Below are positions 42,201-64,000 of a stretch of DNA of 64,000 bases, one piece after another. Below the pieces are notes generated by a model, which made no database searches, was not told the origin of the DNA, and saw only the letters and a list, made by a program, of their open reading frames with translations. Position 1 is the first letter of the stretch. Every line of letters begins with the position of its first letter. Both the position numbers and the translations under genes were made by a program. This DNA comes from Schmidtea polychroa (taxonomy: Eukaryota): the NCBI GenBank assembly GCA_044892525.1, contig CM097888.1, positions 39,804,001 through 39,868,000 on the forward strand, in the 5' to 3' direction.

Positions 42201-44915
42201 ATTTTATATTCTCACTTTAGGCCTAACATTTAAAATCTTTGTATGTGTGATTAGATTGCGTTTTGGAAAATTGGACTTCACTTGATAGTCTATTATAGTT
42301 AAGATACCCGCAAACGTTCAGTTGATTATACCAGGTTTTTTAGTTAAAGAAACTGAACAATTAGAGTTTTAATGAAACATTAAAGAGTTAACATCAAACG
42401 ATGCCGTCTGATCTGAGTTAATTTTCTTGTTCCTATTTATTAAATATTGTTTTTCGATCTTTAGTTTGCGCTCTTATGTCATCGCTCTATTGTCGTGCGC
42501 TTTTTTGACGGGTCCCCGATCAAGGTTGATAGTGTTTCGAGAATGGCGGATCTTGGGTGCTAAATTTATATGATTCAGTTAGTAATACACGTTGGTATAA
42601 AATCGCACCAGGAGATCACAGATGCAATATCGTCTTCTCGTAAAATCGTAACACATTTCCGACATTCGTCTATAGCTAATGATTTACTTAAACGGATTCA
42701 GAAATCATTTCAACCAGATGCAGCAGGCAACCCAATTCCATACATTGCTTGATAAATGATGTTCCAACGAGATGGAATTCTACGTTTTTTATGCTAGAAC
42801 GTTTATTGGAACAGAAAAAGGCACTGGCTGCATATTATCAAGATAATGACATTAACCTAACTAGTCTTCAGTGGAGTTTATTACGTTATTATTACGTACA
42901 AGGAACGCTAGGACGCCAGTATGATGTCTGCAACAAGTGGAATGATAATTCCAAGCATTCGTGTTCTTAAGATGATTTTGAAAAAAACTTCATCGGATGC
43001 CGAAGATTGTGTAATTAAATTAATGTGTACCACGATGCTTGAAGATATTCGCAGGAGATATTTGAATATTGAAAAAACTAAATGTTATATCTATGGTATT
43101 AGACCCTACTTATAATCTTCGCCTCGCTGACGACGAGATTTCCAAGTTTGCAAAAGAATGGCTTGCTGAGGAGATGGACACTGTGGTTTTAGGTCGAAAA
43201 CCGATCAGTGAAGAGTTAAATGCCGCGACAAAGTCACATTCAGCCGTTTTATCCAATTTGGATAGTTTTTTCGATGATATACTCGAAGAAACACAATCAG
43301 ATTACGGATATTCCAAAACAATTCCATTAAATCTGCAACTCGGCGCATATTTAATGGAAAAATGCTATCCACCACCAGCTGATCCAATAATATTTTGGAA
43401 ATTGCGAAATATTTCATACCCTCAACTTTACGAGGTGGCAAAAAAAGTCTGCGGCACCTACTTCTAGCGTGGTCAGTGAAAGAAAAATAAATAAAACAAA
43501 CAAAAGTTTTACTAAAACAAACTACTTTCTAAATAATCTAAAATGTGTGTAATCTTATTGTAATTAAAAAATGAAAAAAAATAAAAACTTTTTATAAATT
43601 GAATAACTAATAAATATAAGCTAACTATGCATATATCAGAAACATATGAAAAGATCTAATATTTACGAAACATACCTTTTTTGAAATGAGAGTGAAATAC
43701 ATATAACCAACACATGATAAAATTAATTTGAAAAATTCTCTTACATTTAATCTTCCGTAAAATTTACACATGTTACAAAAATCACGAAAAATACACCATG
43801 ACTCGAAAAAAACTATGAGAAAATATATATCCAGAGCAGTGTAAATATTCGATTTGGCTTTGGACTTTGGCATATAGTAGTTTTAAATATTTGTACTTCG
43901 GCAAAAATGGCACTTTGGCTACTCCCTAATATGCATACAATAAAGATCGTGTGGTAATGTGCGATAAATCATTTCCTGAAAGCGCGATAAATCATTTCCA
44001 AATTGTGCGATAACTCCATTCACGAGTTCGAGATTTTGGCGTTGTCGAGGGAGTGGTATGCCCCATAAGTCATAGTGATTCGGAACATTCACTTTTACTT
44101 ATTACTAAAGTTCCCACTTGATCAATGCGCAATTAACAACAATTAACAATACGGTGGCTTTTATCAATCATCATAAGATATTTTCTTTACTGTGATTTTT
44201 CTAGTTAACAAAAAAATGAAAATAAAGGAAATTTATAATGATAGCTAGCAAATTTATAAAGCAAATTTATCGTTTATAAATGAGTTTTGTAATTTATTGA
44301 ATATCAAAAGTAAATGTAATAGAAATTCTTCGATTATATAGCAAAGAGAATTTTATTCGAAGTAGTTTAGCGTTTAAAATACTATTTTTTTAAATCAGAT
44401 GGTCAGTGTTCAACAAGTCCAGCTTTGTGTGAAGAAAATGTTTATTTAATGGGAGAAATCGGTTGTGGATCAACAGGACGAGTTATGCGGGCATTATATG
44501 TGCCAACGCAAGAAGTTATAGCAGTGAAAATAATCGATCTTGATATGGATAGTGAAGATAACATAAAACAACAAATCTTATCAGAGCTAGCCGTATTACG
44601 ATTATCCAAATCATCTCATATCATTGATTTCTACGGTGCCTTTTTTGTGGAGTCCAGTATCTATATTTGTACTCAATTTATGGATGGTTACAGTCTGGAT
44701 CGATATGGAGTTATTGTCGAGAATATTCTCAGCAAACTTCTTATACTTATTATAAATGGACTTGTCTACTTGTGGTCGAATAAAATCATACATCGTGACG
44801 TCAAGCCGTCTAACATGCTCGTCAGCACTAGTGGTCAAGTGAAACTATGTGATTTTGGTATCAGCAAACAATTAATCCACTCAATTGCCAAAACTTACAC
44901 AGGTTTGTGTGCTTA

Positions 44916-44960
<45 letters not shown>

Positions 44961-45361
44961 GAAAGAGATTGTTCTAATCGATATAAAATATTTTCAACGC
45001 GGATTATTTTTAAAATATTAAATCAAAACAAAAAAGACTTTTCATGAATGAGTAATTTTACACCAAATCTGACTTTGATAAAATCGGATTCAGTGAATTG
45101 ATTGATAATAAATATTTGTGTCTATGTAATTATTTATAATTATTGGCTATTATTGAGAATAGCTCAATTGAACGTATCTCATATTTGTTAATGATGGCTA
45201 TTGTCAATATTATCATTGGATTAAGTCTAGCATTTATTAAAATTTGTTTCAAAATTTACTCATTATTAATGACAATCTTTATCAATAGTCAATCATACGA
45301 TTTAGATTTATTTAGTTTAATTTATTATTATTAATTAATCCACTCAATTGCCAAAACTTAC

Positions 45362-45409
<48 letters not shown>

Positions 45410-48400
45410 GCGTTTGATAAAACTAATTTATGATTTTTTGTCAGAATAAAAATGAATAAAATATCATAAAAAAGAAAACAGGTAAAAGATGACCAAAAGA
45501 TTATATTAATTTTACGCTTTTATTATATAATTTATTTAAAATTTTACGATATCTTATAATTTTAATCGACAAAATGATATTTTTATTCAAATATTATCTA
45601 AAATCGATTTTTTATATCTAATGATAATAAAATGAATTAAATTTTATAAATATATTTAACATTTTATTTTATAATTTTACATAAACTTTGATTTTTAAAA
45701 CACAATATGATATTTTAATTCATATTTTATCTCAAAAACATCGACTTTACTCATCGAAACATGTATAATTTTTTCAATTTAACCAAACATTTCTTTTAAA
45801 TTTTCGTTGTCATAATAAACACTTTAATAAAACAAAAAATTCTATACATTGGCTAAATTTGTAATGTGAAAACATTCATAAGTAAATATTTATATTCTCA
45901 ACGGGAAAATATTGATTTAAATCATTAAAATTTATACGCACTTTTCCACCTACTTTGGTACATTCTGCCGGATATTGCTTCAATCTATTCCAGTTTACGA
46001 ATTTCGCAAGTACATTCAATATTTTGAAATTGACGCAAACTTCAATGTTAATGTGACAATTGAAATTTATAACAAAAAGCACAGATTTGTATTAATTGAA
46101 AAATCAATGCTCTCACATACTTCATAACAATACATTGCAATGATCGATTATTTTAATTGCTCATGCATAAACCTTGAAACACTTTGAAACAAGAATACTT
46201 TTCTTAAACCTTAATTTTTTTGTTTTTTTTTATTTGGAAGTCAGAAAATGTAAAATTACAGTAAAATTACAATAAACTATTTTAGAGGAAAATATTTAAT
46301 TTATCTTGTTTTTATTATGAATAGCAAATATAACAAGACACTTAATTCTGAACTCTTTCAGTTTTAGTCTATAACATTAGACTTTAACATTCTGTTTTGG
46401 AATGCATTTTTTTTATTATACAAGCTTCTTCTCTCATAACATGCTACATTAAATCAAAAGAGAATATAAGCAAAGTTGATAATTTTTTCTGAAAAGGATA
46501 AATATAATTTCAATGCACTCGTTACGATATATATTTCCAGATATGGGCACCGGCTAATGCTAAAAGTGTGAATATCTGATATCTTTTGAAGAAATAGCTG
46601 GATACTTCTTTTTCTGCTAGAATTTCTTAATCTAGATTGCTTTAAAGAAAAAATAAATCGTCATCCATAATTAATATATTTCTTGCAATATATACCTATT
46701 TACCAGATTTAGTCAAAAGTTATTCATGTTTTTTAGTTATTTAAAGTTATTGTTTTACCATATCATTTAAGCAACATATTTATGTGCATAATTTGGTATC
46801 ATTTTAAAGACCATGAAAAGGAGTATACAACTGGACTTTAAAAATTACAATTTTAAAATTCCATTTAGTTATTTTTAAATTTTAGAATGATTGTAGAAAA
46901 ATCAGTAATTCGTCATTATAATTCGACATTATTGAAAAAATGGACTAAAATAGCAGTTGTGACTAGAGAAATCTGCATCGTTGATTGCAAAGATGTACTC
47001 AAGGAAAATACAGCTCAGTGGTGGTTTCGTCACTTTAATCAGTAATTCGTGTCATTACGATATTATTGGAAAAATGTTTTAAAACAGCAGCTGTGACTAG
47101 ATAAATCAACAACGTTGATGGCAAAAATGTGTTCAATGAAAATACAACTCAGTGGTGGTTTCGTCGCTTTAATCAGTAATTCGTGTCTTATTACGACATT
47201 GGAAAAATGGCCTAAAACAGCATCTGTGACTAGATAAATCTACGGCGTTGATGGCAAAGATGTGGTCAAGGAAAATACAGCTCAGTGGTGGTTTCGTCGC
47301 TTTAATCAGGGAGATACAAGTGTTGAAGACCAGGAACATTCAGGTCGCCCATCAGTGGTGAATAAAGAAAAGTTTCGTGCCCTTTTAGAGCAGCAGCCTA
47401 GTACTAGAACTCGCAAGCTGCCAGATGACCTCTTTCATTCTCAAAACGCTATTGTTCGTCATCTCTATTACATAGGTTTTGTAAATAAAAATCCCCTCCG
47501 AGTTCCACAAATTTACAAATATTCAAGAACAACGTCAAATTAATCATTGCCGCAAATTACTCGATTTGTTTACCCCATTATTATTAGTCTTCGCATTGAA
47601 ATGATTGACAGCACATTGTTTTTGTCTTTGCTGACCTTATTAAAAGTACAGATCACACTTTGTGGCTTTAAGTTTGAAATATCTATAAAAATGAAATGCT
47701 AGAGTAAATTCAGTTACAACGGTTAGCTATAAATAAACGCTGACGCTATTGTCTAGTTTTACCATTGTTATCTTGCAATATAGGCAGTTAAAAAGATGGT
47801 TGCAATTTTATTCGAATACCCGCTGTTTGCAAATTGTATGTCCAATTTTTTACATAACTGGAAATTACAGTTTCGAACGTAAAAAAAGTCATTCCACATA
47901 GAATGCAACAATTGGTATTAAAGGGGGAATTCCTTCCGGAAAAAATCAAACCCTACTAGGCTGCATACGAATATTTTTCTATTTATGATTTTGAAAATAT
48001 TCTAGTTGATCAATTATTTTTTTATAATGAATTTTTTCAAGGAACTGTTGCCTTTATGTCTCCTGAAAGGCTGAGAGGAGACTTTTATAGGCTGTCATCT
48101 GATGTGTGGAGTTTAGGAATCAGTATCTATATTCTCGGAACTGGAAACCATCCATTTATTGATTTAACTCTACCGTCAACTCCCGCTATGATCATGAACA
48201 GCATATTCGTATCTAGTAATAATAACTTTTATTCTGCTCTATTGTCCAATGAGATGCAAAGCTTCATTGGAAATTGTTTAAATAAAGATCCTAGTCAAAG
48301 GTTTGATCCAACATCCATTACGCAGCACCCAATTTATCAGAAACATTCCGGTAACCATGCTGCCATCCTATCGCAATGGGTATCCGATCATAGCCATTGA
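36224..48400 (+). CDS. MAP2K5: Dual-specificity MAP kinase kinase 5 (MEK5): PB1 + kinase, 3 resolved exons
   Basis: Exon 36224-36761 (PB1: FEYLDEDDDNVVVSCEE..FSYY), exon 44399-44902 (IAVKII..KQQILSEL..FYGAFFVE..HRDVKPSNMLV..VKLCDFGISKQLIHSIAKTYT), exon 48042-48400 (GTVAFMSPER..SDVWSLGIS). All junctions GT-AG, phase 1. An extra exon in the 36780-37050 gap cannot be excluded. Confidence 0.92.
36780..37050. other. Assembly gap (N run)
   Basis: Run of N in MAP2K5 intron 1. Confidence 0.99.
37500..38240 (+). repeat. 23-bp minisatellite (catttcctaaaagcgcgatatct), about 32 copies
   Basis: Head-to-tail units with 23-nt periodicity and scattered gcgc>gcgt variants. No spacers. Confidence 0.97.
38339..40822 (-). 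mobile_element. hAT Buster-family DNA transposon (ZBED5/ZBED8/SCAND3-like), full length, 3' frameshifts
   Basis: Perfect 16-bp TIRs CAGTGGTACGCAAACT. TSD ATCTAGAT/GTCTAGAT with central TA. ORF 40285-38885 has a BED finger (CLIC..SMVPSKLHQHLETKH), LQIDESTD, VCTDGAPAM, HCMIHRE, HTEVRWLSKG. The C-terminus (LLPFGSSYLCEFGFSAL..HSSH*) continues out of frame to ~38465. Confidence 0.95.
41361..43928 (+). mobile_element. Decayed Ac-type hAT element (ZBED1/ZBED4-like)
   Basis: BED finger (IWNFF..ANCLIC), CFTSDMWTA..FLSLTAHWI, DNESSMIKA, RKIVTHFRHS, NDVPTRWNSTFFMLERLLEQK, DPIIFWK..YPQLYEVAKK across several frames. Right end ..GGCTACTCCCTA (43928) looks like an Ac-type TIR. Left TIR not found. Confidence 0.85.
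42076..42560. mobile_element. About 485-bp non-coding insertion interrupting the Ac-type transposase
   Basis: Transposase homology stops after DNESSMIKA and resumes at ~42570. The insert has short inverted termini GCACCC...GGGTGC. Boundaries approximate. Confidence 0.45.
43959..44015 (+). repeat. 2-3 degenerate copies of the 23-bp minisatellite unit
   Basis: gcgataaatcatttcctgaaagcgcgataaatcatttcc matches the 37500-38240 unit in the same orientation. Confidence 0.7.
44916..44958 (+). repeat. (ATT)n microsatellite; a second (ATT)n tract lies at ~45362-45408
   Basis: Direct reading of the sequence. Confidence 0.9.
46906..47543 (+). mobile_element. Mariner (Mos1-like) transposase 5' relic with the HTH-coding segment tandemly triplicated
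   Basis: Three ~135-bp units start at 46906, 47043 and 47177, each ending tggtggtttcgtc.ctttaatcag. The last continues as KENTAQWWFRRFNQGDTSVEDQEHSGRP. Confidence 0.85.
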
Positions 48401-50281: not shown

Positions 50282-51281
50282 AGTCGGTTCTCTCTCTGAC
50301 TCCTCGTGTTCTTAATCAAACAATTAAGTCGAAACCCAGCACAGAATAACTTTATTTAATTTCAATCAAATTATAATTTGTCACTATATTTGCACATTTT
50401 GCTCAAAATAATTATCACTCGATAAGGTAGATAACCCCAGGGCAATCACCTTTTCTAATACAAGAACAAAACTTTTTTCGATTTACTATTGTTGGGCTAA
50501 AACGTGGAGTTTCGAAAACTGGAGCGAATAGAAAAGTAATCCTTGAAAAATAAACGAAATAAAATAAAAATATAAAGTACCATAAAATTCTCACTAATAA
50601 ATCAAAAAAGAACAATAAAATATCAATAAGAGAATAAGAATAAGTAAAACAAACTAAATAAAACCCAATAAACCCCTTAAGATTTGGAAATAAAGCGATT
50701 TAGGACCCAGCAGATGAAATAGAATAGAATAAGTAAAAAAGTGACAACAAATAAACGAGAAATTTAAGAAATAAATAAAAATAAAACTATCTGTAAGTCT
50801 AATTAAAACAAAAAATTATATTACAATAAAGTAGCAATAAATCCACAGGAAAAATAGGAGGAAAATAATAAAAATAAGAAAATAAATAAAATAATAATAA
50901 GAAATAAGTTAAGTCATTAAAATCTAATATATTATAATAAAAAAAAACATAAAAATAATAATAAATAGTAAAAATACAAACAAGTCGTGTCCTGATTGGA
51001 CGAAAAATAATATATAAGGAACGGAAAATATCTGTAGAGTACCACTTTTAAAAAATATTCTACAGGTAAACTTTGGTTCGTTATTAGACCACTTTTAAAA
51101 AATATTCTACAGACTTGACAGATTTCGGAACCTTTAATTAGCCTACAGCGAACTAGTTCAGAGATTTCCAAACCAAGCCGAGGAAGGAATATATAGAGGC
51201 CAAATTTCAAATCCATTCGGGAAAAATCTTAAATTCAACCGATTTAACTTCAGTTTTCGAAACTCAAGGTATGCCTCGACA
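50282..51281 (-). mobile_element. Putative LTR (about 1 kb)
   Basis: Minus strand starts TGTCG and ends CGAC(T), with AATAAA near the 3' end. An internal 25-bp direct repeat lies at 51041-51065/51088-51112. The 3' part resembles 35400-35500. No clear PPT or TSD. Confidence 0.35.
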
Positions 51282-51369
51282 GTTGTTGTATTTTATGGTT
51301 ATTAGTTTGATTTCGTTAATTATTATAAATATAATAAAACAATTTCATATAATAAATTTATTTAAATGA

Positions 51370-52852
51370 AAAGTTGCCTTTCTTCATGGTACCGGCGACT
51401 GTACCATCTGAGAACTCCCAGTATGATGTGGACGAGTTGGGATTGCACTGCAGTAGAGGACACCACCGTGAAAAGGTTGGTATGCATAAGAAATCACGAA
51501 CATGCTGAAAGGAGAATGTGATATTTGTAGAGAGTGATATTTGTCATATTAGAGATCCTCCAAGGAGACGATGAGATTTCGATTACGTAGGATGAGCAAC
51601 ATCATACTTGGAGTCCAAATGGTATGGTCGCCGGGTAAATTTTCTTTATGCATTTTTCTATCATTCAGTTTGATTATTGTATTGTTGATTTGATTGAATG
51701 GAAACGAGTTGATTGGTCCCTCATGACGGTGCAAGGAGGTGGCAGCAATGAATGCCTTCTTGGGTGTGTCGTGAGGGGTGAAGAAAACTCAGTAGGTGGA
51801 ACATCCAGTTAATAAATGACAGTTCCTTCATCAAGCGCGATCGTCTATAGAGCGTACCATCGGTTCGTTTAGTCAAATCGAGATGTCCAGTAGTTGTAGA
51901 GATGATTTAAATTCCGAATGCAGACAATTCAGAGCGATATAGGCAGTGACGTTCGTACAGATTCGATAATAATCCACATAGATAGGAGAAAAATTCTTTT
52001 CCGTGATATTCAGCCGGTCGATCGACGTAGTTAGGAAAGAGCAGTGTTGACCATAGATTGCAAGTAAATCCAACGATTTTTCGGTGACGCTCTGTGTTTG
52101 CAAGGTTCTGTCTGATTTGCGCCGTCACGACGTTAGCGGTTGCATCCATCGTCGATGTACTCTTACGATTTAATTGTCGTCCGTGAGTCGCCAAGGCCAG
52201 TGATAAAAAATCTCTCGCTGACAGGGAAGTAAACATCTTGCAGGGAAATTATCAAAATTCTTACTTCGAGCTCGCAGACAGTAGTTGTCAACGATAACGA
52301 AATCAGTTGATTTACATTAGCCTGCGTAGAGTTAGTCGACAGGAGATATCTGATAATGTCCTGGAGAAAGAGATAACATGTTAGTTTTTCTGGGAAAATG
52401 TCAAATGGATAAGCTGATAGTCATTGATCTGAATTAATATCGTAAAAGGAAATTAGATGATAATGTTGAGCTTACCCAATAATCTACGAAATTGTCGCCC
52501 ACTCAGATTGATAAATCTGATTTTCCGATTCACCTACGGCTGCTTATTTGAGGAATCTATTACGCAACCACTATTATTCCGACTTGAGCATGCACATACC
52601 CACGCACCACAGTCAAGTCTACTTAGGGCAGTTTAAAGTAAATACACAATTTTTGGTGATGTAATAGCGGCATGATAATGTAAACTTTGCTAGAACAGCG
52701 AGACAATAAGATGAAGTAAAGGAATGGATTTCCCCTACACAACCCGATATATAATAATTACTCACAACAGCATAAACCATCATTCGCGGTGATAGCCAAC
52801 ATACAGTTACAGATACCACCAGGAGTAATGACACACTTACACATTCAATCAT
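51370..52852 (-). pseudogene. Decayed ORF with signal-peptide-like N-terminus, possibly an envelope/glycoprotein relic
   Basis: GC-richer than the flanks. Hydrophobic start MIECVSVSLLLVVSVTVC, Cys-containing fragments, many stops and frameshifts. No family motif recognised with certainty. Confidence 0.3.
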
Positions 52853-53422
52853 AATGCATAATCACAAGTGAACGTTTTCCATGACGACGATTTCGACGCG
52901 TTATTTGAATTAATTAGATGTAGATTTAGAGCAGAATTTTCAACTGATTACGTGATCAATTCCATAATTTTGAACGAGATAAAAACATAAACAATCTATT
53001 CCGTCGCCGTGAATTATTTCTCTGTAATTTTAGGCACGCCTACATCGACGGATTGCCATAATGATATCGGCAAATCTTTAAATAAAATATACTAAGGAGA
53101 ACATGGTTGAAGGGAATAAAGTAAAAGACGAGTTTTACCTGGGGATGGTCCCATCCGAAAATAAACCCAAAGGGCGAGGTTTATGTAGAGAGAATTTTGT
53201 GTACGAATCCCCGTTTCCTTTTCTTAATTTACACGAATCCGGTGAAGAGATTTGAATGTTTGCAACTGAATGACTGCGTATAGAGATGGATGAAGAAGTG
53301 TGTGGGTCATCGTTGGGTGGTATGCTTGATAAACTCCAAAGCCACGCTCAAAAATTTGATTATTCTTTTTCTCACTGATAGAGGTTTTCCCGAGTGAATA
53401 TAAACAATGATTGATTTTCTAG

Positions 53423-54184
53423 ATGGCTACATCGTCCAACAACGCCAAAGGACTTCACCCGTGTTTTTCTTGTGCGGACAAGAACGCGGATATCGCCCAA
53501 CTGCATTTATATATCGGGGCTCTCAAAAAGAGAATTGATCTCTATGAAGGAACGTGGTTCTCCCCGCCACAAATGAAAGAGGAACGCAAGAAAATTCTCC
53601 GATTAGAGCATTGCAGGGACAGCCTGCTAGAGGAAAGTCGTTGCCAGCGGCTCACCATCAAAGCGCAGTCAGAAGCCCTCCATAAGGTATATACGGAGGC
53701 AGAATTGGCTAAGCGGGTGCGAGAATTCCCCGTTCTGGATGGGATGAATATCTTTCCCCTTCACCACCAGTCTTCTACATCTTCCAGCTCGAACTGTCTG
53801 GGGCACGGCTCACAACTGCCGCCCATTCCAGCCCCGGTGTTGTCAAGTCACCAGCCAAAGACAGGTGGACCTACCGATTCCATCTTAGCTTCAACCTCGG
53901 TAGCACCAATCGACATCACGAACGCAGGAAACCCCCAGACTACCCGCAAACGGAAACGGCCAACTCGAGCCGAGAAGAACCAAAAACGCCGAGCTGCGAT
54001 GACAGCACTCGAGACGTCCTTATCAGCGGCGAAATCAAAAATCCAAGAGATAACGTCCTCCCATTCAATCCCCTCGAAGGAAGTTTTCCGCATCGTTCCA
54101 GCTGAGGGCATCAAGTACATTGTAGATAGCCGATTACCGGTCGACATAGATGAGATACTGGCCGATGGAGATAACTTTGTTTAA
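53423..54184 (+). CDS. Uncharacterised 253-aa protein: CxxC, coiled coil, Ser/Pro-rich linker, basic NLS-like stretch
   Basis: Intact intronless ORF containing CFSC and RKRKRPTRAEKNQKRR. AATAAA follows at ~54315. Confidence 0.6.
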   Translation: MATSSNNAKGLHPCFSCADKNADIAQLHLYIGALKKRIDLYEGTWFSPPQMKEERKKILRLEHCRDSLLEESRCQRLTIKAQSEALHKVYTEAELAKRVREFPVLDGMNIFPLHHQSSTSSSSNCLGHGSQLPPIPAPVLSSHQPKTGGPTDSILASTSVAPIDITNAGNPQTTRKRKRPTRAEKNQKRRAAMTALETSLSAAKSKIQEITSSHSIPSKEVFRIVPAEGIKYIVDSRLPVDIDEILADGDNFV

Positions 54185-55187
54185 CGTGACGTACAATTGA
54201 GCTTGATTTCCTCTCCATTGAGTTGTAAATTACCTTGTGAATTATGCTAATGTTATATATTTTTGACTGCTGTTGATCTGTTAGTGGTAATGATATTTTT
54301 ATTGTTTCAGTGTCAATAAAATTTTCTGTTTGTTTTCAGTTTTGTCGAGCTTTCATATATTTGTTTGTGCAATTAGAGTAGATGAGATAACGCTGCGGAA
54401 TGAAAGTAATTAGAGTTGAAAGTCGTTCCTTTGGACCAGGATCGGACCAAGTGACACGCATGTATGTGGGTAAGTCCTTCTAAGGCACCGTAGGACCCGA
54501 ACCGAGAAAGGGTTAGGAGTAGTCCTAAGGCAGGGGCTCACCTGCTAACCTTTTCCGACCCGTGTGAGCAGCACCAACATGGAACATCACCATGGGCTCA
54601 TATGTGGGAATATGCAATCAGTCATTTGGAGTATGTGTAGAAAATGTATAACGGAGCCATGATGCTTGATAGGTGTGATGGAAAGGCATGTATAATTTTC
54701 TTTTCTTCTCCACATACGCCAACATGATTTTTGGGGGCTCAGCCGGGATTCATATATTGATTTGTTTGATTGTCTAATTTTGTGTTATGATGTGTTAGAT
54801 TAACAATTTAATTAATTATGATAAAAATGGAATCGGGGCTGAAACGAATTATAGTGCAATAAAATGATACGAACTGTCTGAGTTTGAAATAGAGCATGTG
54901 GTGAATGAAACGAACCTAAAGGAGTTGGAATGAATGTGATGAAGTATGATGAGAAAGGAAAAACGGGAATTGGTTATTGAGATTAATTTTAACTGGTTAA
55001 AATAAAAAGGGGGACGAAAGAAAGTAAGTGATTAAAGCAAAAAGATGAAAGGGGAATTTCAAAGATCGAATAAAATACAAAAGTTAAAACACTAAAGCAT
55101 AAAAGTCAACGAATATTAAATACAAACATAATAATATTAATTTTAATATCAGTAGCAACAAAATAATAACAACACATTCATTTAGAT

Positions 55188-55667
55188 ATGTCAGAAGCTA
55201 GACAACATCTACGACAGCTAAGCCGGTTCGTCGAAATAGAAAATGATTCAATAAAAACATTAAGGGAAAAACTGAAACAAATAGAACTGCTAGAACAACA
55301 AAGCCACAACGCACCGCTGATATCCAAACAAAACTTTCTAACCGACAGATTAGGATCAACAAATACCGATACCGACTTGTCTATTCATTACCAATGGTTT
55401 CAGCAACGTCTCGACGACCCCGCTCTGAACATCGAATATGTGAGGATACGCGAACGAGTCAAAACTCTGTCTCAGCGGATACGAACATCAATAGTAGAGA
55501 AAGCAGCGGCCTTGAGAACTTGTAACATTTGCAAGATGCGACCTGTCAAAATTCTGATTCTACCTTGTGGGCACCTTAGCCATTGTGACGAATGCGCCGC
55601 CAGTTTAATCCGTTGTTCTATGTGCACATGTGTAATAAAAGAGAAGCACACAATCTACTTCAGTTAG
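55188..55667 (+). CDS. Coiled-coil + C-terminal IAP/MDM-type RING finger protein (putative E3 ligase), no BIR domain
   Basis: CNICKMRPVKILILPCGHLSHCDECAASLIRCSMCTCVIKEKHTIYFS* has the spacing and extreme C-terminal hydrophobic tail of IAP-class RINGs. Confidence 0.82.
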   Translation: MSEARQHLRQLSRFVEIENDSIKTLREKLKQIELLEQQSHNAPLISKQNFLTDRLGSTNTDTDLSIHYQWFQQRLDDPALNIEYVRIRERVKTLSQRIRTSIVEKAAALRTCNICKMRPVKILILPCGHLSHCDECAASLIRCSMCTCVIKEKHTIYFS

Positions 55668-56261
55668 GTACGCGATCGTCGCTCGGTGAAGGAAACTGGA
55701 TGATTAACAATTAGATTAAACATTTTGATATTTTTGTTCTGAATTAATTCGGTAATGTTTTATAATGATAGCATATATTATCTGTAATGTGGAGTAAATA
55801 ACTAATAAATCCTTTTTGTGTATTCATTTCATTATACGAAGTTATAAATTGAGTTGTGTTGTTATAATTTTCACCATGAAGAAAGGGCATTTTAAAAATT
55901 TAAATTGATTTTTTAAAGTGGAACTAGTCCCATCATAGTGTTAAAGGGGGAATAAACCGAGCCACCTTCGGGAGGTACGATATTGGAACCATTTGGGAAG
56001 GGACAACCGATCACCCCGAGTAAGAGATGTAAGACGAGGTACCATCGCGAATATTGAAAAGTTTCTGCGGTATGGCTGATCACCATACCAATGTAGAAAT
56101 GGATCAATGCGATCGTTTTGCGTTTTGAGCAAGGGGGGAAAGGGGAAACCTTCCAAAGCGGTACAGATTAAGTCGACAAATAAAAGTAAAAATAGGAAGA
56201 TGACAGTATAGAATAAAGACAGAAAAGGAACGGAAGCATGCAGAGTTTAGAGACATTAAGG

Positions 56262-56484
56262 CCGAGCTGTTGAAAAGTCCAGCCGGTCAGGGAAATTGAA
56301 ACTGAGCTGTGAAAAGTCCAGCCAGTCGGAGATATTAAGATCGAGTTGTTGAATAGTCCAACCGGTCAGGAGAAGAAGATTGAGCTGTTGAATAGTGCCA
56401 GCCAGTCGTAAGATCGAGTTGTTGAATAGTCCAACCGGTCAGGAGAAGAAGATTGAGCTGTTGAATAGTGCCAGCCAGTCGTAA
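56262..56484 (+). repeat. Tandem array of a GAGCTGTTGAAWAGTCCAGCCRGTC-like core (6 copies), including an exact 73-bp duplication
   Basis: 56336-56408 is repeated at 56409-56481. Lies in the non-coding leader of the integrase-ankyrin ORF. Confidence 0.9.
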
Positions 56485-57062
56485 AGGCCTAAAGTAATAG
56501 TGAGATAGCATTCAAGCTACAAGTTGATAACATTTAAATTACTAGTGAGATGGAATATTAAAGCTAGCTAGAAGCAAATTGAGTTTGAAATATGGAATTC
56601 GAATTTAGAAAGGATTAAACGAGCTCGTGGGAGGTAATAATGAAATTTTTTTTCAGTGAGAAAGAGAAACTGAAAAGGAAAATGAATTAAAGAGATAATG
56701 AAAATAAAGAATAAGTGAGAATAAATGATGAGTAAAAGAGGAAGGTGATTAATTAATTAAAAGGGATCCCAGATAAGTAGACAAAGTTCTACAGAATTTT
56801 TTTTTTGGTTTAAACCGGTTAAACGAATTTTGTTTTGGTTACAGAGTAGAACCAAATAAGGGGAAACAGAGATGAAAGATTAAGTAAAATAGCGGAACCG
56901 CGTAAAAGGATTAAGAAAATATGGGAGGTAATAAGCAGTAACTGACAACGACCTATCGATATTATAAATGCTAACTATAGATAATTTATACGACTATATA
57001 GATAATTGTTACTACCCCAAATAGATAATTTAAAATCGACGAAAAATATGGGTTGATGGGTA

Positions 57063-60000
57063 ATGAGCGAAGTCACCAACTACTTCAAGATCGCAAAATT
57101 AAGAACATCACCGTACCATCCACAAACTAATGGTATGACAGAAAGATTCAATGGAACACTGATTCAAATGTTATCAAATTATGTCGATCGTCATCAACGA
57201 GACTGGGATGAATATATAAAATTATGTCTAATGGCTTACAGAATGTCGATTCACGCGTCCACAAAGATGAGTCCGTTCAAGTTGATGTACGGCAGAGAAT
57301 GCAATATGCCAATGGATTTAGAATATCAGCCACCAATATCACAATACATGGAAATAGACGATTATGTAACCAAGTTCAAGGAAAGAATGCAGGAAATCTG
57401 GGAAACTGCAGGATTGAATATAAAATTTTATCAAGAAAGTTACAAAGAGTTACATGATAGAAAGAAAAACGTCAAACAGCATACGTTTCAAACAGGCGAT
57501 TGGGTGATGATTGAAACACCAGAATTAATTCCAGGAACCACCAAAAAATTACAACGAAACGGTAAAGGGCCGTATGAGATTCTATTCGTCGGAGAAACTA
57601 ATGTAAGAGTACGATTAGTGAACAACCCTTTTACAAGACCAATATACGTAAATGTTGCACGATGTAAGCCAATTCCGAAAACCGCCACCAGTCAGCCAGA
57701 AGGACGTACACTAACGACAAGATCACAAACGTATAGAATAAACATGTTACAGCAGATAAACGAACCAACAGGTAATCGATTAGGGTTACAACCATCAGAA
57801 GCCGAGAAAATCATAAAGGAAGTAACTGTTAAAATGCCCGGATGGGCAGAAGACAGATTAGATTTTGAGATATTGGGAGGTCTGCTAACAATGATCGAAA
57901 ATTATGCAAACCGAGAAAGAACACACCCATTACTCAGGGTAGTAAAAAGTCAATGGCCTATATTATTTACGATCACAGACCACTATGGAGATACACCGCT
58001 GCACAAGCTTTTAAAGGTGGGTAGTAACGAACAGATATTAGAAACGATTGAAGCATTTCGCGACTGTAACATTTCGACGGATCAAGGAAACAACCAAGGT
58101 TACACCCCACTAATGATAGCAGCCAATCGGGATAAAGCTAAAGATATTATCATCGCATTACTCGAAACGGGGTCAAAGATAACCACACAAGACCACAACC
58201 AGAAAAATGCACTACATCATGCAATCGAAGGGAAAAGTACGGAAGCCTTCATAATCTTAGTAGATCTATTATCATATGAGGATAATAGAGAGATAGGAAA
58301 CATGTATGACGGGCTATTAACTGCAATCAAAGAGAAATTAATAACAATTGCTGGATTACTAATTGCATGGAGAAACCCGATCAAAAACGATTACATGGTA
58401 GATATAAACGAAACATTTACCAAAGGAGAAAACACCTTGATGAGAGAAGCGATGAGAGGACATCACCTATTCGAGATTCCAAATCAACTACTACAACGTG
58501 GCATAAAGTTCTCAAATCACAAAGACGAACAACTAATCAGAAAACGAATTACCAACTTCGAAAAAGCTATATCTCAATTTACCGATAAAGTACAAGTAAA
58601 ATTTTGGGAAACCGTGAGCGTTTTACATATGATGGAAACTATGAACAACATTCGAGAAAACTACCTAAGTATTATTCAAGTTCTAACGGCAGAGGAACGC
58701 ATTAACAATTCGAACAAGAAAAAGATAAAAATGAAGAAAGTAAAAGCAAGAGAGTCTGAGGAACAAGTCGATCAACCAATGACCGATATAGCAACAACAA
58801 GTAAACCAAAGACAATAAACTCCGACCAAGAGATAGTAGTACGTAAGGCTAAAGAAGTATTCTTTGAAGAAATGCAAGATCTATCCGATGAAGCGATACT
58901 AGCAAAAATAACCAAAACAGTACACACCTACGCAAGAGATCAGACCACAAATCTAGACATAGGAAAAATAAAAACATTTATACCACTAGCATTCACCTTA
59001 CCAACAAAAGACTCAAGAACACCATTACAACAAGCCATTTTAGCAGCAAAAGAAAACAGAGCAATAACCATCATAAGAATCCTCAGAGACTTCGGAGAAG
59101 AATCTAATGCAAAAAATGAACAAGGAGAAACAGCAATGATGTATGCAGCCATAACAAATATACACCCGAAAACATTACATATACTACATCGATCGGGATC
59201 AAGACTGGATGAAATATCAAACGAAGGAAATTCTACCATGGATTGGGCAACGATACAACCAAACTTGGAAATGATTAGATTCATTTGTAAAAATGCTACA
59301 AGAACCGAGGTAGAAAATATCTGTAAAAACACGTCACAGTTCCAATGGAACACGATACGGATGAACTTAGAAGCCATGAAGTTATTGCTAACATGGAGAA
59401 TACCACAAAGCAATAAATATGCAATAAATATAAATGAGTTCTACGAAAACGGAGAAAATGCTATGGTTAAAAATACACTAACAAAAGGAGGAACTCCGAA
59501 AATCATAATGATCGTATTAAACAGGGAAGATCTCAAATTCACGCAAAATCTAAACGAACAAAAGCGAATCGGAAAACATCGCCGTATACAATTGAGAGAA
59601 CTGGTAAAAGAATGGAATAGAAAGAGACATGTAGCAACAGGCAGAAAGGAGTTCGAATTCGAAACAAAATTAGCAAGAAACAGAGTGCTAACGGCATACC
59701 GCAGATTGTTGAATGATATAAATGTCGAGGACGACATTTTAAACGATAGCGGGGGAGATAAAGACGATAAAGACGATAAAGACGACGATAATAATGAAAA
59801 AGGTCGAAACGGGAATAAAGAGAAAGAGAAATCAGAGGAGAATAATCAAGAAAATAACGACGCGAGTAGGAAAAAAGAGGAAAATAACCCGAGAAACCGA
59901 ATGAAGCAAGAAGAAAAGACGAATAGTGGAAAACAGAGGGTATGCCTACTTTTTACCAACAAAGAAATGGAGACAAATATGATGATAATGATACTCGTAC

Positions 60001-60980
60001 TAACAATGGTGGAAATGATAACAGCCCAGGGAGGAATGAGAACGATAAAAGAAGCCAAAGAAACGGAAAATAAGGACAACAAAGAGGAAGAACTAAAACA
60101 AGAAAAGAAAAAACAAGTACAAGAGCAGCAATGGGATTTAAAAGAAGAATGGGATTTAAAAGAAAGGTGTATATTAGGAAGATGTATGTCTAGAGCTTAT
60201 CAGAGACTAGTGTTAAAAAATGAAGATGCAGAACCAATAACGGAAGTAAGAATACAAGAAGCATACCGAAATCGAGACGGAAAGAGAATAACGAAAGTCA
60301 AAGGGAAGGAGGTACACCTGGGAAAAGGAGGTGAGGTAGTGATAACGCAACTCCAGTCAAGAAAAGAACACAAAGTCTGCATTTCAAGATTAGGACCGGG
60401 TGAAGACTGTCTACAATATGTAATACAGCAACAACCTCCAAAAGAATACACAATATGCATCTGGAGAAAAGATACAGCGAGAGAATGTCGACGATACCCT
60501 GGGAAAAGAGGGAAGAAAAGAAAAATCAATGATGAAAAAGATGAGCAAGGGAAACGCAAGAAAAACAGTGAGAAACATCAAGACAATTATGTATCCGAGG
60601 AGGAGATGGAGAAAATACAAAAAATGGCAAAGGAAGGTATGAACGAGGAAATAGCAAGAATACGAGGAATGATGAAAGGAAATGACAAAGACGGTAAGCT
60701 AAAAAGCACAGAAGCAATATCAACACTAACGAGCAAGGAAAAAGCGGAAATTATAAGCGTAAAACAGATGATGTGGATCAGCGGCATAATAATAACAGGG
60801 GCCTTTTTAATCATAACGGGGGGGACAATAAAAATAATCAAAGATAGACGGCATCGCGGAGAACTAGAAATGGCCAGAATAAGAAATTTTCAACATCGTG
60901 TAAAACGACCAAGTAATATCAAGCAGGAACAGTGGGTGGAGGCCTGGAATGCTCAGCGCCCTCCAAGCTCACGTATATAG
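57063..60980 (+). CDS. 1305-aa fusion: Ty3/Gypsy integrase C-terminal half + GPY/F module, two ankyrin-repeat modules, acidic/charged linker, internal signal-like segment, Cys-containing region, TM helix, short tail
   Basis: KLRTSPYHPQTNGMTERFNGTL..DWDEY..AYR..H.STKMSPFKLMYGRE and FQTGDWV..KKL..KGPYEI (57063-~57670). Ankyrins GDTPLH, GYTPLMIAA, QKNALHHAI, SRTPLQQAI, GETAMMYAA. Hydrophobic MMIMILVLTMVEMITA (~59979-60026) and WISGIIITGAFLIITGGTIKII (~60774-60839). Confidence 0.88.
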   Translation: MSEVTNYFKIAKLRTSPYHPQTNGMTERFNGTLIQMLSNYVDRHQRDWDEYIKLCLMAYRMSIHASTKMSPFKLMYGRECNMPMDLEYQPPISQYMEIDDYVTKFKERMQEIWETAGLNIKFYQESYKELHDRKKNVKQHTFQTGDWVMIETPELIPGTTKKLQRNGKGPYEILFVGETNVRVRLVNNPFTRPIYVNVARCKPIPKTATSQPEGRTLTTRSQTYRINMLQQINEPTGNRLGLQPSEAEKIIKEVTVKMPGWAEDRLDFEILGGLLTMIENYANRERTHPLLRVVKSQWPILFTITDHYGDTPLHKLLKVGSNEQILETIEAFRDCNISTDQGNNQGYTPLMIAANRDKAKDIIIALLETGSKITTQDHNQKNALHHAIEGKSTEAFIILVDLLSYEDNREIGNMYDGLLTAIKEKLITIAGLLIAWRNPIKNDYMVDINETFTKGENTLMREAMRGHHLFEIPNQLLQRGIKFSNHKDEQLIRKRITNFEKAISQFTDKVQVKFWETVSVLHMMETMNNIRENYLSIIQVLTAEERINNSNKKKIKMKKVKARESEEQVDQPMTDIATTSKPKTINSDQEIVVRKAKEVFFEEMQDLSDEAILAKITKTVHTYARDQTTNLDIGKIKTFIPLAFTLPTKDSRTPLQQAILAAKENRAITIIRILRDFGEESNAKNEQGETAMMYAAITNIHPKTLHILHRSGSRLDEISNEGNSTMDWATIQPNLEMIRFICKNATRTEVENICKNTSQFQWNTIRMNLEAMKLLLTWRIPQSNKYAININEFYENGENAMVKNTLTKGGTPKIIMIVLNREDLKFTQNLNEQKRIGKHRRIQLRELVKEWNRKRHVATGRKEFEFETKLARNRVLTAYRRLLNDINVEDDILNDSGGDKDDKDDKDDDNNEKGRNGNKEKEKSEENNQENNDASRKKEENNPRNRMKQEEKTNSGKQRVCLLFTNKEMETNMMIMILVLTMVEMITAQGGMRTIKEAKETENKDNKEEELKQEKKKQVQEQQWDLKEEWDLKERCILGRCMSRAYQRLVLKNEDAEPITEVRIQEAYRNRDGKRITKVKGKEVHLGKGGEVVITQLQSRKEHKVCISRLGPGEDCLQYVIQQQPPKEYTICIWRKDTARECRRYPGKRGKKRKINDEKDEQGKRKKNSEKHQDNYVSEEEMEKIQKMAKEGMNEEIARIRGMMKGNDKDGKLKSTEAISTLTSKEKAEIISVKQMMWISGIIITGAFLIITGGTIKIIKDRRHRGELEMARIRNFQHRVKRPSNIKQEQWVEAWNAQRPPSSRI

Positions 60981-61148
60981 AAAGGATTATGACTGTATAT
61001 AGATTGTAAAAAGTAAGTAGGTAATATTTATTTATATAACAGTATTCTATATTTTTATATAAGCGCGGTATCAATAGTACATAATGATGGGGATAATTAA
61101 TATGAACATAAAATTAGATAAGGATTGAAAAGTATATATAAATTAAGA

Positions 61149-61508
61149 ATGGAGCGAATAGGCGAGGAAGTAAATCACAGTACAACAACCGAGGAGATGT
61201 GGAAACAACAATGTGCAATGTTAACTCAAGTGATTTCGAATTTACAGGAACAAGGACTCGCTGTACAAAGAAGCTTAGTCGAAAGTTTAAATAAAGGCTT
61301 CAGTTATGTAAGAATAATCGAAGACCAACGAATGAAAATTGAGCAAATGCAGCGAGAGATAGACCGAATATCACGATACAGCCAGGTGCAAGAAGAGGAG
61401 TTAATAAGAATCGCGGAAGAGATGGAGCGAGAGGAGATAGAAGACTGGTCAGAATGGTTAACCAGCAGGGAAGAGGGCGGACAAGAGGCCGACTCTTCCA
61501 GCCAATAA
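61149..61508 (+). CDS. Small acidic coiled-coil protein
   Basis: Intact ORF (first ATG 61149; track start 61125 is TTG) with heptad-like Q/E/R-rich sequence. AATAAA overlaps the stop. Confidence 0.55.
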   Translation: MERIGEEVNHSTTTEEMWKQQCAMLTQVISNLQEQGLAVQRSLVESLNKGFSYVRIIEDQRMKIEQMQREIDRISRYSQVQEEELIRIAEEMEREEIEDWSEWLTSREEGGQEADSSSQ

Positions 61509-61597
61509 ATATAACCTAAAATAGCAATGTAAATAACTGTAAATAAAAATTCGAAACTGTACCAGTAACGAATATATGTATATATATAATTATAGAA

Positions 61598-62986
61598 ATG
61601 GATAAGCGACAACGAGAAGAATTCAAAGAAATTGTTGAACAAGTCAGAAAGTCCACCACAATTCGAATACACAACCATGTAACGTGTGGAATATGCAAGA
61701 GCTTATTAAGAGAACCTCACCAAACCAGATGTGGATGCAGAATGTGCAGAGAATGTGTAGAGGAGATAATAAAGAAGGGACCACAATGGTGCCCAGTATG
61801 CAAAGAAACAATGATAACAAGTTTGGGAGATACAAACGAAGATAAAGCAGCTGTAAAAGATATGTTGAATGCAAACCTTGGATGCAAAAACACCCCATGT
61901 AATTGGCGAGGAGTGATATGGGAAGTGAGGCAACATATGGAGCAATGTGAATATAAAATCAGTCAATGCAAACGTTGTCAAGAAGAGATTAAAGTCAATG
62001 AAGAAGCAGAACATCAAAGTCGATGCGAAGAAAGACTGGAGAAATGTGAGTATTGCGGAGAAACCGACACCTGGAAAAAACTAATCAGTCAACATCACAA
62101 CATACAAGAGGAGAAAGTGTGCGCAGAATTCAGAGGAGAATGCCCCAATAAATGCGATAAACCCGGAGTAACAAAACTCGCTCAACATCTAAAAGAATGT
62201 GAAAGGAAAAAGATAACGTGTGTGCTAGGAAAATGGGGAGGTCCGAAACAATTACACCGAGGGGAATTACCCCAACATCTAGCAGAAAATGTATCAACAC
62301 ACGCGGAAATATGGTCAACGGTATTACAAGAAAACGAAAGAAAAACCGAAAACTTAGAAAGAGAAATAGTCTCGCTAAAAGCGTTGGTAAAAGAACTATT
62401 GGAAGAAAAGGAAGCATTTGAAGAGGCGAGAACAAGTACAAAGATACAGACAGATCTAGTAGAAACTAGCAACATTATGGTGAAAGAACTACATCAAAAA
62501 GTAAGCGAATTAAACCTCAACGAATTAATACCTACGGCTCCATACATATGGAAAATAACGGGAGTAAAAGAGAAGATGCAGAGAGCGAGAAATGGAAAGG
62601 ATACAACATTACTAAGTCCAGCATTCTACTCATGGAAAAACGGGTATAAAATGAAAATGAAAGCATACCCCAATGGGGATGGAAGTGCATACGGAACGCA
62701 TTTCTCAGTATTCTTCTTGATGTGCAAAGGGCCATACGACGAGTTAATAGAATGGCCATTCAAAGCAAAAATAGACCTCGCAATGATGAACTATCAAAGT
62801 ATACATGAACAGAGTTTCCATACAGCGGGAAACCTCGTATGTTACCAAAGGCCCTTGGAAGAAGAAGGACCAGCAACTGGAGCACCGAATTTCATCCTAC
62901 AGCGGAAAGTAGAAGACATGACGAAAAGCGACACTATATACATAAAAATAGCGGTGAGGCGAGACGGGAAGAGTAGGACTGAGTAG
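61598..62986 (+). CDS. TRAF: Intronless TRAF2/3/5-like protein (RING + TRAF zinc fingers + coiled coil + MATH)
   Basis: RING CGICKSLLREPHQTRCGCRMCRECV..CPVC; zinc fingers C.N..CNWRG..HMEQCEY..CEER..CEYC; MATH YIWKI..SPAFYS..GYKM..YPNGDG..GTHFSVFF..GPYDELIEWPF..QRP. Confidence 0.93.
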   Translation: MDKRQREEFKEIVEQVRKSTTIRIHNHVTCGICKSLLREPHQTRCGCRMCRECVEEIIKKGPQWCPVCKETMITSLGDTNEDKAAVKDMLNANLGCKNTPCNWRGVIWEVRQHMEQCEYKISQCKRCQEEIKVNEEAEHQSRCEERLEKCEYCGETDTWKKLISQHHNIQEEKVCAEFRGECPNKCDKPGVTKLAQHLKECERKKITCVLGKWGGPKQLHRGELPQHLAENVSTHAEIWSTVLQENERKTENLEREIVSLKALVKELLEEKEAFEEARTSTKIQTDLVETSNIMVKELHQKVSELNLNELIPTAPYIWKITGVKEKMQRARNGKDTTLLSPAFYSWKNGYKMKMKAYPNGDGSAYGTHFSVFFLMCKGPYDELIEWPFKAKIDLAMMNYQSIHEQSFHTAGNLVCYQRPLEEEGPATGAPNFILQRKVEDMTKSDTIYIKIAVRRDGKSRTE

Positions 62987-63206
62987 AGAGACGAATAATT
63001 TTGTATATACTAATTGTAAATATCGGCGTATATATCCAGTAAAATATTATATAGTAGTGTAGAAAAATTCCCCCCAAATCTACCAAAGGTAAACTTAAGC
63101 GAAAAACTCCTAAAACAACTCCTATAACGAATTATAAAAATAAATAAAAAATAAGCCAAATATAAGCGTACAACGTTGAGTTAATGATATCGTTATTTAG
63201 ACCAAG

Positions 63207-64000
63207 ATGACACAAGAAAGAACTGAAGCCCCAAACCATGAAACCAAAGTCAATAAAATCCATAAGGGAAAATGGGTCAAAGTAATGTTACAATTGACGA
63301 ACCAGACCCGCAACCACCTCGAAGAGGCCAGGGAATACGAGAATAACAAATATCAGTGGTTAGTAAACAATTTAAGAGCCGAAGCAGAAGCATGCAAAAG
63401 AGCCTCTAAGTGGGCATCATTGGAAAACACTCGCCAAGAAGCGCACAGCCACTATTTAAAACAGTTAGTGCAGGAAGCACGGAAACGATTGACGGACGAA
63501 AACACAAAACGAGAAGCAGAAAAACAAAAGGAAGGAAGGAAAATGAATCACCTAGTGGCAGAAGCCCGAAACTGGAAGCGGCAGAACAAAGAGATGAAAA
63601 AAGAAATGAAAGAATTGCCTATGAGATTAGAATACGAAAGCGAACAAGGCAAATGGGAGGAAAATCTGGTCATAAGAGAAGAACTGAAACGGCTCAGAAA
63701 GATCGCGGCCCGAAGCCAAACATGGCAGACCAAAGCCATGGAATTTGAAAGACATCTAGCCATGAAAATCTCCATAAGGGAACACGAGAATGCCGCAATG
63801 GAAGAACTGATACTTCAACAGTCAGGACGACTCGTGGAACTGGTGAATAAGGTCGCAGAACTAGAACGAGATGTCAACGGATACCAAGGAGCTCTGGAGC
63901 AGAGAAATATGGTACTGGCGGGGAAAAACAAAAAGTTAGAAAACGAAAGGAAAATGTATAACGAAAATCTCAAAAATCTGGAGATAGAGATCAAGAAATG
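63207..64000 (+). CDS. Long coiled-coil ORF, open to the end of the window (missing from the ORF track because it has no stop)
   Basis: I translated MTQERTEAPNHETKVNKIHKGKWVKVMLQL...ENLKNLEIEIKK from the ATG at 63207 with no stop codon (~264 codons). E/K/R-rich. Confidence 0.7.
   Translation, partial: MTQERTEAPNHETKVNKIHKGKWVKVMLQLTNQTRNHLEEAREYENNKYQWLVNNLRAEAEACKRASKWASLENTRQEAHSHYLKQLVQEARKRLTDENTKREAEKQKEGRKMNHLVAEARNWKRQNKEMKKEMKELPMRLEYESEQGKWEENLVIREELKRLRKIAARSQTWQTKAMEFERHLAMKISIREHENAAMEELILQQSGRLVELVNKVAELERDVNGYQGALEQRNMVLAGKNKKLENERKMYNENLKNLEIEIKK

Follow-up and report, generated by a model that had tools for sequence, protein, structure and literature searches.

An internally deleted copy of a giant Gypsy retrotransposon carrying TRAF, RING and ankyrin genes in Schmidtea polychroa

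Computational follow-up was done of a 64,000-nucleotide stretch of Schmidtea polychroa DNA (contig CM097888.1; here G000:C4:39,804,001-39,868,000, within the 781-Mb genome, G000), which is called the window. An initial annotation had described its right part, from position 53000, as a retroelement-borne cassette of TNF-receptor/NF-kB/apoptosis-type signalling genes. The six open reading frames (ORFs) of this array do not form a free-standing cassette; they belong to a single, very young copy of a ~30.6 kb Gypsy long terminal repeat (LTR) retrotransposon, of which they make up the left part. The copy is probably a recently inserted, internally deleted member of an env-bearing family of the Burro group, in which the TRAF, IAP-type RING, ankyrin and membrane-protein genes form a cargo common to the whole family and likely keep the expressing cell alive and damp its stress or immune signalling. 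The features that carry this reading were observed directly, namely the LTRs, target duplication, primer site, copy number, gene order, domain identities, deletion and purifying selection.

Features and boundaries of the element

The ends of the element were mapped from DNA past the window and from the stretches around four other copies. Extension of the contig past 64000, which had been suggested earlier, gave two more ORFs followed by the 3′ LTR. In the window itself six co-oriented + strand ORFs are present, of 253, 159, 1305, 119, 462 and 264 amino acids (aa), the last one being 345 aa in full. The features are given below.

50486..50489, + strand: target-site duplication CTAT, 4 bp; its partner follows the 3′ LTR, past the window end
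50490..54724, + strand: 5′ LTR, 4,235 bp, with TG...CA ends; its start lies left of the region from 53000 flagged earlier
53423..54184, + strand: LTR-encoded 253-aa ORF, in both LTRs, with a conserved CxxC and helical N-half and a basic stretch
54732..54749, + strand: primer-binding site, 18 nt, complementary to the 3′ end of genomic tRNA-Pro(TGG), 7 nt after the LTR
55188..55667, + strand: 159-aa ORF with a helical N-part and a C-terminal IAP-type RING (Pfam C3HC4 RING); precedes gag in full-length copies
56264..56484, + strand: tandem repeats of 39/73-bp period in the leader; length differs among copies
57061..57064, + strand: deletion junction with TAAT microhomology, ~10,615 bp gone
57063..60980, + strand: 1305-aa polyprotein remnant (Pfam ankyrin and weak rve_3)
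61149..61508, + strand: acidic, helical ORF of 119 aa; a Burro1-like family has a homolog in the matching place
61598..62986, + strand: full-length TRAF, 462 aa, with RING, zinc fingers, coiled coil and MATH (Pfam RING and TRAF-MATH)
63207..64000, + strand: 345-aa coiled-coil-like ORF, 264 aa in the window and the rest past it
Past the window: 233-aa coiled-coil-like ORF, then 211-aa predicted membrane protein, then the 3′ LTR
G000:C4:39870043-39874276 (window-equivalent 66043-70276): 3′ LTR, repeat of the 5′ LTR

The two LTRs of the window copy differ by 2 substitutions and 1 indel, and three other copies have about 1 LTR mismatch each and likewise 4-bp target duplications. Since these LTR pairs are nearly identical, the family has been active very recently. 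The TG...CA LTR pair, the short target duplication and the tRNA primer site are Ty3/Gypsy hallmarks, as is the order protease (PR), reverse transcriptase (RT), RNase H (RH) and integrase (IN), which is seen in full-length copies and is deleted in the window copy. The earlier suggestion of a giant Gypsy element is borne out by the LTR pair, the target duplication, the tRNA-Pro primer site and the full-length copies with pol. The stretch preceding the 3′ LTR, examined for a polypurine tract, is conserved and GC-rich and not purely purine. A full-length copy at C1:235.46 Mb measures 30,585 bp, and the window copy measures 19.8 kb after its deletion. The base composition is unlike that of the DNA to the left, as had been noticed before: the coding strand from 57063 has A 0.43 and T 0.19 against 0.35/0.36 in bases 1-50000, and the GC content of the array is 0.35-0.47 against ~0.28 to the left.

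The tRNA-Pro(TGG) pattern has 2,212 matches across the genome, and a long tandem array of this tRNA, which matches the primer site of the element, is located at G000:C1:130.90-130.95 Mb (L074) with a 475-bp period.

Copies, internal deletion and polyprotein

About 120 close copies are present in the genome. The TRAF DNA search gave 368 candidates, and all 40 that were scored are 98-100% identical; the RING protein search gave at least 120 rows at 75-100% identity among the best 150 of 3,604 candidates, and the MATH search gave 123 rows at 84-100% and then 27 at 70-73% among the best 150 of 1,463. A RING match was found upstream on the same strand within 40 kb for 106 of the 123 MATH matches, with full-length spacing in 90, shorter spacing in 12 and longer spacing in 4, and the window copy has the shortest spacing of these 106 pairs. 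Seven further RING loci were fetched, five with the same downstream order (three of these from a sister subfamily) and two without it in the span fetched. The expected co-occurrence of the ORFs was therefore found, in the same order in multiple copies and linked to LTRs and pol. None of the refuting conditions named in the initial annotation applies to the family. A host gene cluster in single copy and neutral DNA that merely hitch-hikes are both hardly tenable as alternatives: the scored TRAF matches are multi-copy and nearly identical, the ORFs are enclosed by LTRs, and the ratios of non-synonymous to synonymous substitution (dN/dS) given below are far below 1, which argues against hitch-hiking.

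The ~10.6 kb missing from the window copy is present at 57061-57064 in four of the four first-fetched copies, with TAAT on either side. The deletion removed gag, a ubiquitin-like region, a Bcl-2-like segment, env, protease, reverse transcriptase and RNase H and, from the integrase, the zinc finger together with the first two of the catalytic aspartates. The replication genes are gone, and the window copy cannot replicate by itself. The 1305-aa ORF starts at an internal methionine past the second catalytic aspartate, and its integrase piece is therefore non-functional. This ORF has the integrase C-terminal piece at aa 1-205, a weak rve_3 match that agrees with the Gypsy integrase fragment reported earlier. 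Two ankyrin clusters come next, with their best Pfam matches at aa 327-401 and 668-708, and then a signal-like segment at aa 973-991, an ectodomain with cysteines and a predicted beta-rich structure, whose fold model is uninformative (pLDDT 45), and a transmembrane segment at aa 1241-1259. The initial annotation was thus right that six co-oriented ORFs are present, and wrong that all are intact, the 1305-aa ORF being the 3′ remnant of a ~4,620-aa polyprotein. Likewise, its TRAF, IAP-type RING, ankyrin and membrane-protein domains were recovered by Pfam and PDB searches, but the ankyrin and membrane parts belong to the same polyprotein tail and the RING protein has no BIR. Self-comparison of the ankyrin region found no internal duplication at E<1e-3, although a single Burro1-like stretch is matched by the two clusters alike. 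Among long proteins, 4 generic ankyrin proteins were obtained with the ankyrin query, and the protein-atlas search with the membrane tail gave no usable match.

It is improbable that the deletion is an assembly error and the real locus full length. Contigs from four public sequencing runs end at 57061-57064 and continue as the full-length form, and of the 3,963 pieces 32 were listed, none of which spans the junction; a junction at a single locus among ~120 copies is, however, easily missed in the short contigs of other individuals. Microhomology of 4 bp, as found here, is a usual trace of template switching or repair, and other copies show shorter RING-to-MATH spacings of their own, both of which argue against an error. 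The deletion is without independent support, as expected for a private event. A further possibility, that the deleted form is a non-autonomous, cargo-only sub-family spreading with helper enzymes, would fit with the retained LTRs and primer site and with the shortened spacing of 12 of the 106 paired copies. This is very improbable, since the 12 shorter spacings all differ from each other and the 36-mer across the window junction occurs once in the genome; no second full-length match to the deleted form was found among 40 scored of 1,293 candidates. The cargo-only mobile sub-family was rejected on the single-copy junction.

In the full-length copies, a frame of ~4,620 codons is open in two of the four first-fetched and has one break in the other two. 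The Pfam order is Retrotrans_gag, CCHC, Monjiviricetes_fusion, RVP, RVT_1, RNase H, rve and ankyrin, and the gag has three CCHC knuckles. The env fusion glycoprotein (PF24664, E 9e-68) lies in frame between the Bcl-2-like segment and the protease. The segment directly before env matches Pfam Bcl-2 in five of five aligned segments (best E 1e-5; E 0.019 for the window family), and all of its best 60 PDB matches are Bcl-2-family chains, at weak scores. The ubiquitin-like region before it has weak matches to PI3K_rbd (E 0.013) and ubiquitin (E 0.2). Between PR and RT a segment is conserved in relatives, with no dUTPase match in Pfam or PDB.

Other env-bearing elements were seen as well. Several giant and shorter ones are nested or adjacent at G000:C3:85.54-85.59 Mb (L033-L036). 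An abundant shorter family of ~3,300 aa (L030-L031, L034-L035, L042-L043) has gag, in-frame env and pol with weak ubiquitin-like and Bcl-2-like matches; it has no TRAF or ankyrin match and supplies top env matches among 2,581 candidates.

Selection, origin and possible role of the cargo

Selection was analyzed by pairwise Nei-Gojobori dN/dS with bootstrap, in which synonymous saturation left 10 of the 39 comparisons without a ratio. Every cargo ORF tested is under purifying selection. The TRAF has values of 0.07-0.09 over the whole protein and 0.11-0.12 for MATH only, and in the polyprotein tail the ankyrin region has 0.06-0.09 and the membrane ectodomain 0.11-0.14; the integrase used as control has 0.01-0.03. 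The 159-aa RING ORF has 0.16-0.24 (three unsaturated comparisons), the 119-aa ORF 0.13 against L057, and the LTR ORF 0.11 against L058 and 0.49 against a close copy. Past the TRAF, the 345-aa ORF has 0.04-0.06 and the 233-aa ORF 0.11-0.18, and the 211-aa membrane gene is the outlier with 0.34-0.50. As dN/dS is well below 1 for each ORF, the cargo is functional for the element and does not hitch-hike.

The 3′ cassette appears to have recombined between subfamilies. This is suggested by two copies (L103, L104) in which the TRAF is 98% identical to that of the window copy, yet the 345-, 233- and 211-aa ORFs are only 81%, 58% and ~25% identical; the LTR of these mosaic copies, like their downstream ORFs, comes from another subfamily. 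Homologs of the 211-aa membrane gene are also found in tandem at G000:C1:186.48-186.50 Mb with a ~1.5-kb period, apparently amplified alone.

The best PDB matches of the 462-aa TRAF are TRAF3 and TRAF2 (E 1e-28), and database relatives are at 24-29% only. Its RING has C-G-C at the place of the usual His ligand, which is common to five of five intronless genomic TRAFs checked; around four of these five, the 10 kb fetched holds no element proteins, and the fifth lies near a short pol-like fragment. In quick trees, element TRAFs group with the intronless genomic TRAFs (SH-aLRT 86), apart from a large C2 TRAF cluster (98). A planarian TRAF gene is the likely source of the element TRAF. This dense cluster of closely related TRAF genes (G000:C2:115-121 Mb, L077-L096), with MATH in a separate short frame that is likely an exon, represents a host expansion separate from the element TRAFs. 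In the MATH tree, 14 of the 20 top-scoring genomic MATH loci sampled (of 1,484 candidates) form a clade of their own (SH-aLRT 98), and derivation of the host TRAF expansion from the element is not supported. The earlier idea that the element spreads such genes through the genome thus applies to the element copies and not to the main host TRAF cluster sampled. Hundreds of the TRAF/MATH sequences in the genome belong to elements, a point that matters when the planarian TRAF expansion is counted (PMC6109357; PMC7586133); the words 'transposon' and 'retro' are absent from the main text of PMC7586133. At G000:C3:47.37 Mb (L102) a TRAF comes after a distant Gypsy pol (33% identity) but is oriented oppositely to it, which suggests a second, independent TRAF-carrying element.

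The 159-aa ORF has the RINGs of cIAP1, cIAP2 and XIAP as its best PDB matches (E 1e-9), and no BIR was found in it by Pfam or PDB searches, so that it is a RING-only protein and not an IAP in the sense of a BIR protein. For the 253-aa LTR ORF there was no Pfam match and no credible outside relative, one search being empty and another giving one low-complexity match. The initial annotation took the cargo for a coherent mimic module of TNF-receptor/NF-kB signalling (TRAF2-cIAP-IkB), and the best PDB matches to TRAF2/3 and cIAP/XIAP, the two ankyrin clusters and the two predicted membrane proteins agree with it. We regard this as unlikely, and functions as IkB or in NF-kB or TNF-receptor signalling are not supported. 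No IkB occurs in the top 60 of 171 PDB matches of the first ankyrin cluster, all of which are generic ankyrins (the second cluster was not searched separately). cIAP binds TRAF2 through its BIR, and a RING protein without BIR speaks against such a pairing. The SSS stretch of TRAF3 has a role in receptor binding, and LVC is aligned with it in the element TRAF. A PxQxS-like motif in the tail of the 211-aa protein is absent from four of four divergent homologs examined, and an LMP1-like receptor mimic was rejected on this ground. According to the available part of PMC13563047, no clear homologs of NF-kB were identified in S. mediterranea; an NF-kB domain search of G000 gave no match, but its controls gave none either.

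The preferred reading of an anti-death cargo can be set out as follows. Full-length copies would make one gag-Ubl-Bcl2-env-PR-RT-RH-IN-ankyrin-membrane polyprotein that is cut into pieces, and a type I membrane protein would be released from the tail through its signal-like segment (aa 973-991). For the accessory ORFs, spliced sub-genomic RNAs are the likely templates, as suggested by splice-acceptor-like starts: YAG lies within 12 nt of the ATG in 6 of 7 accessory ORFs of the window copy. Among background ATGs this is so for 26 of 104, and an AG directly beside the ATG is absent in 5 of 6 gag starts. The TRAF and the RING protein are likely ubiquitin-ligase mimics acting on host TRAF/IAP signalling. 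For an element with a TRAF, an IAP-type RING and a Bcl-2-like segment, the most probable purpose is survival of the expressing cells and a blunting of stress or immune signalling; an anti-death role is likely by analogy with the Burro1 IAP. In the portions available, host TRAFs are described as required for cell survival (PMC7586133) and as induced via TBK1 after injection or wounding (PMC13563047).

Several points weigh against this reading. The roles of the cargo in this family are read from sequence, and a BIR-less RING protein cannot work as reported for the Burro1 IAP. The Bcl-2 call is below the Pfam cut-off, its fold model has pLDDT 45, and Foldseek gave nothing at E<=0.001. The YAG count is biased, since in-frame stop codons make up three of the six sites. 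Several dN/dS comparisons are near synonymous saturation and the copies are not independent, and the quick trees have 82-93% SH-aLRT at key nodes and give no direction of capture.

It is rather doubtful that the cargo is kept mainly for protecting host stem cells, as host-element mutualism, and not for the element itself. Strong purifying selection, the need of host TRAFs for survival (PMC7586133, as far as available) and the stem-cell protection reported for the Burro1 IAP (via the accessible part of PMC13465017) would agree with it. However, selection between subfamilies is also expected from replication-level selection, the window family has no BIR protein, and BURRO1 RNA interference (RNAi) did not rescue the smedwi-2 phenotype in an earlier study of a different question (PMC8532177, available in part). 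We also put forward, tentatively and with low confidence, a complex-virus-style accessory programme, in which the BIR-less IAP RING may pair with the element TRAF as its own E3 ligase or compete with host and Burro1 IAPs, and the hypervariable membrane protein by the 3′ LTR, swapped between subfamilies, may act as a surface identity or exclusion factor. If so, Burro families of one genome would tune stem-cell death differently, possibly in opposing directions, and hundreds of element-borne TRAF/MATH copies would inflate published planarian TRAF counts.

Near the element, two exons of a protein kinase gene, which we take to be MAP2K-like, lie at window 44449-45021 and 48056-48400 and end ~2 kb ahead of the 5′ LTR, and the element may affect expression of the gene. 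On the - strand, window 38885-40285 holds a 466-aa ORF similar to DNA transposase with a weak Spin-doc zinc-finger match. Past the window, at G000:C4:39,894,436-39,898,620 (L012:436-4620), two ~1-kb direct repeats (99.8% identical), with an unnamed ORF in each, surround a ubiquitin ORF and then a DUF1759 fragment; this may be a small element of BEL/Pao type that carries a ubiquitin fusion.

Comparison with Burro elements and other systems

A giant retrotransposon with cell-death and ubiquitin genes is already known. Planarian Burro elements exceed 30 kb and have a giant polyprotein, in which env lies in frame between BCL2 and the protease; Burro-1 to -4 contain motifs of MATH, BIR and ankyrin type (PMC6431247). 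The window family shares with Burro-1 to -4/GYPSM1 the size of more than 30 kb with LTRs (multi-kb in the window family), one gag-to-integrase polyprotein, three CCHC knuckles, in-frame env between the Bcl-2-like segment and protease, ankyrin and TRAF/MATH cargo, and accessory ORFs (PMC6431247). The Burro-type suggestion of the initial annotation therefore fits the published layout, and the novelty it had left unverified does not hold, since TRAF/MATH, BIR, ankyrin and BCL2 cargo has been published for these elements (PMC6431247). The literature search gave no description of the BIR-less RING ORF, the LTR ORF, the splice-acceptor-like starts or the swapped membrane gene, two key primary Burro papers being outside the search.

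Burro1 has MATH inside its 4,873-aa polyprotein and a BIR (PMC6431247), and the window family has neither; unlike Burro1, it encodes the TRAF in an ORF of its own further downstream, and its gag is preceded by a RING-only ORF. A Burro1-like family is also present in the genome (L036, L049-L050, L105-L107); of 150 scored rows, 123 have MATH within a long frame, and many of these frames have 4,791 codons. Its RT-RNase H-integrase stretch is 81% identical to that of the window family, and it has the same downstream order of ankyrin, 119-aa-like ORF, TRAF (32-33%) and 345-aa-like ORF, but differs in the polyprotein MATH and in a 392-aa BIR+RING IAP after the TRAF. The window family is thus of Burro type and distinct from this Burro1-like family; it may be Burro-2, -3 or -4, with which it was compared by description only. 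A Burro-like element of Dugesia tigrina also has TRAF/MATH on a separate accessory ORF, which unlike that of the window family lies upstream, and has a 5,140-aa polyprotein and two knuckles (PMC6431247). Likeness to an errantivirus-like infectious provirus is here limited to env homology. BURRO1 and BURRO4 are under PIWI control, as stated in the available part of PMC8532177.

In comparison with vertebrate TRAF2/3 and cIAP/XIAP, the TRAF domain order and the C-terminal IAP-type RING are shared, whereas the RING of the element TRAF has Cys for the His ligand, the receptor-pocket serines are not kept and the RING protein has no BIR or UBA. The Burro1 IAP (B-IAP) is reported to protect stem cells from caspase-mediated death (Lee et al. 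2026, as cited in the accessible part of PMC13465017). The 159-aa protein resembles it as an element-borne IAP-type RING, but B-IAP, which is linked to cell survival in the same source, is BIR+RING, whereas the 159-aa protein is a RING with an unrelated helical N-part. The present data, with purifying selection on the cargo established gene by gene, will be useful in offering a natural BIR-less counterpart to the Burro1 IAP, in which the roles of RING and TRAF can be tested separately by RNAi.

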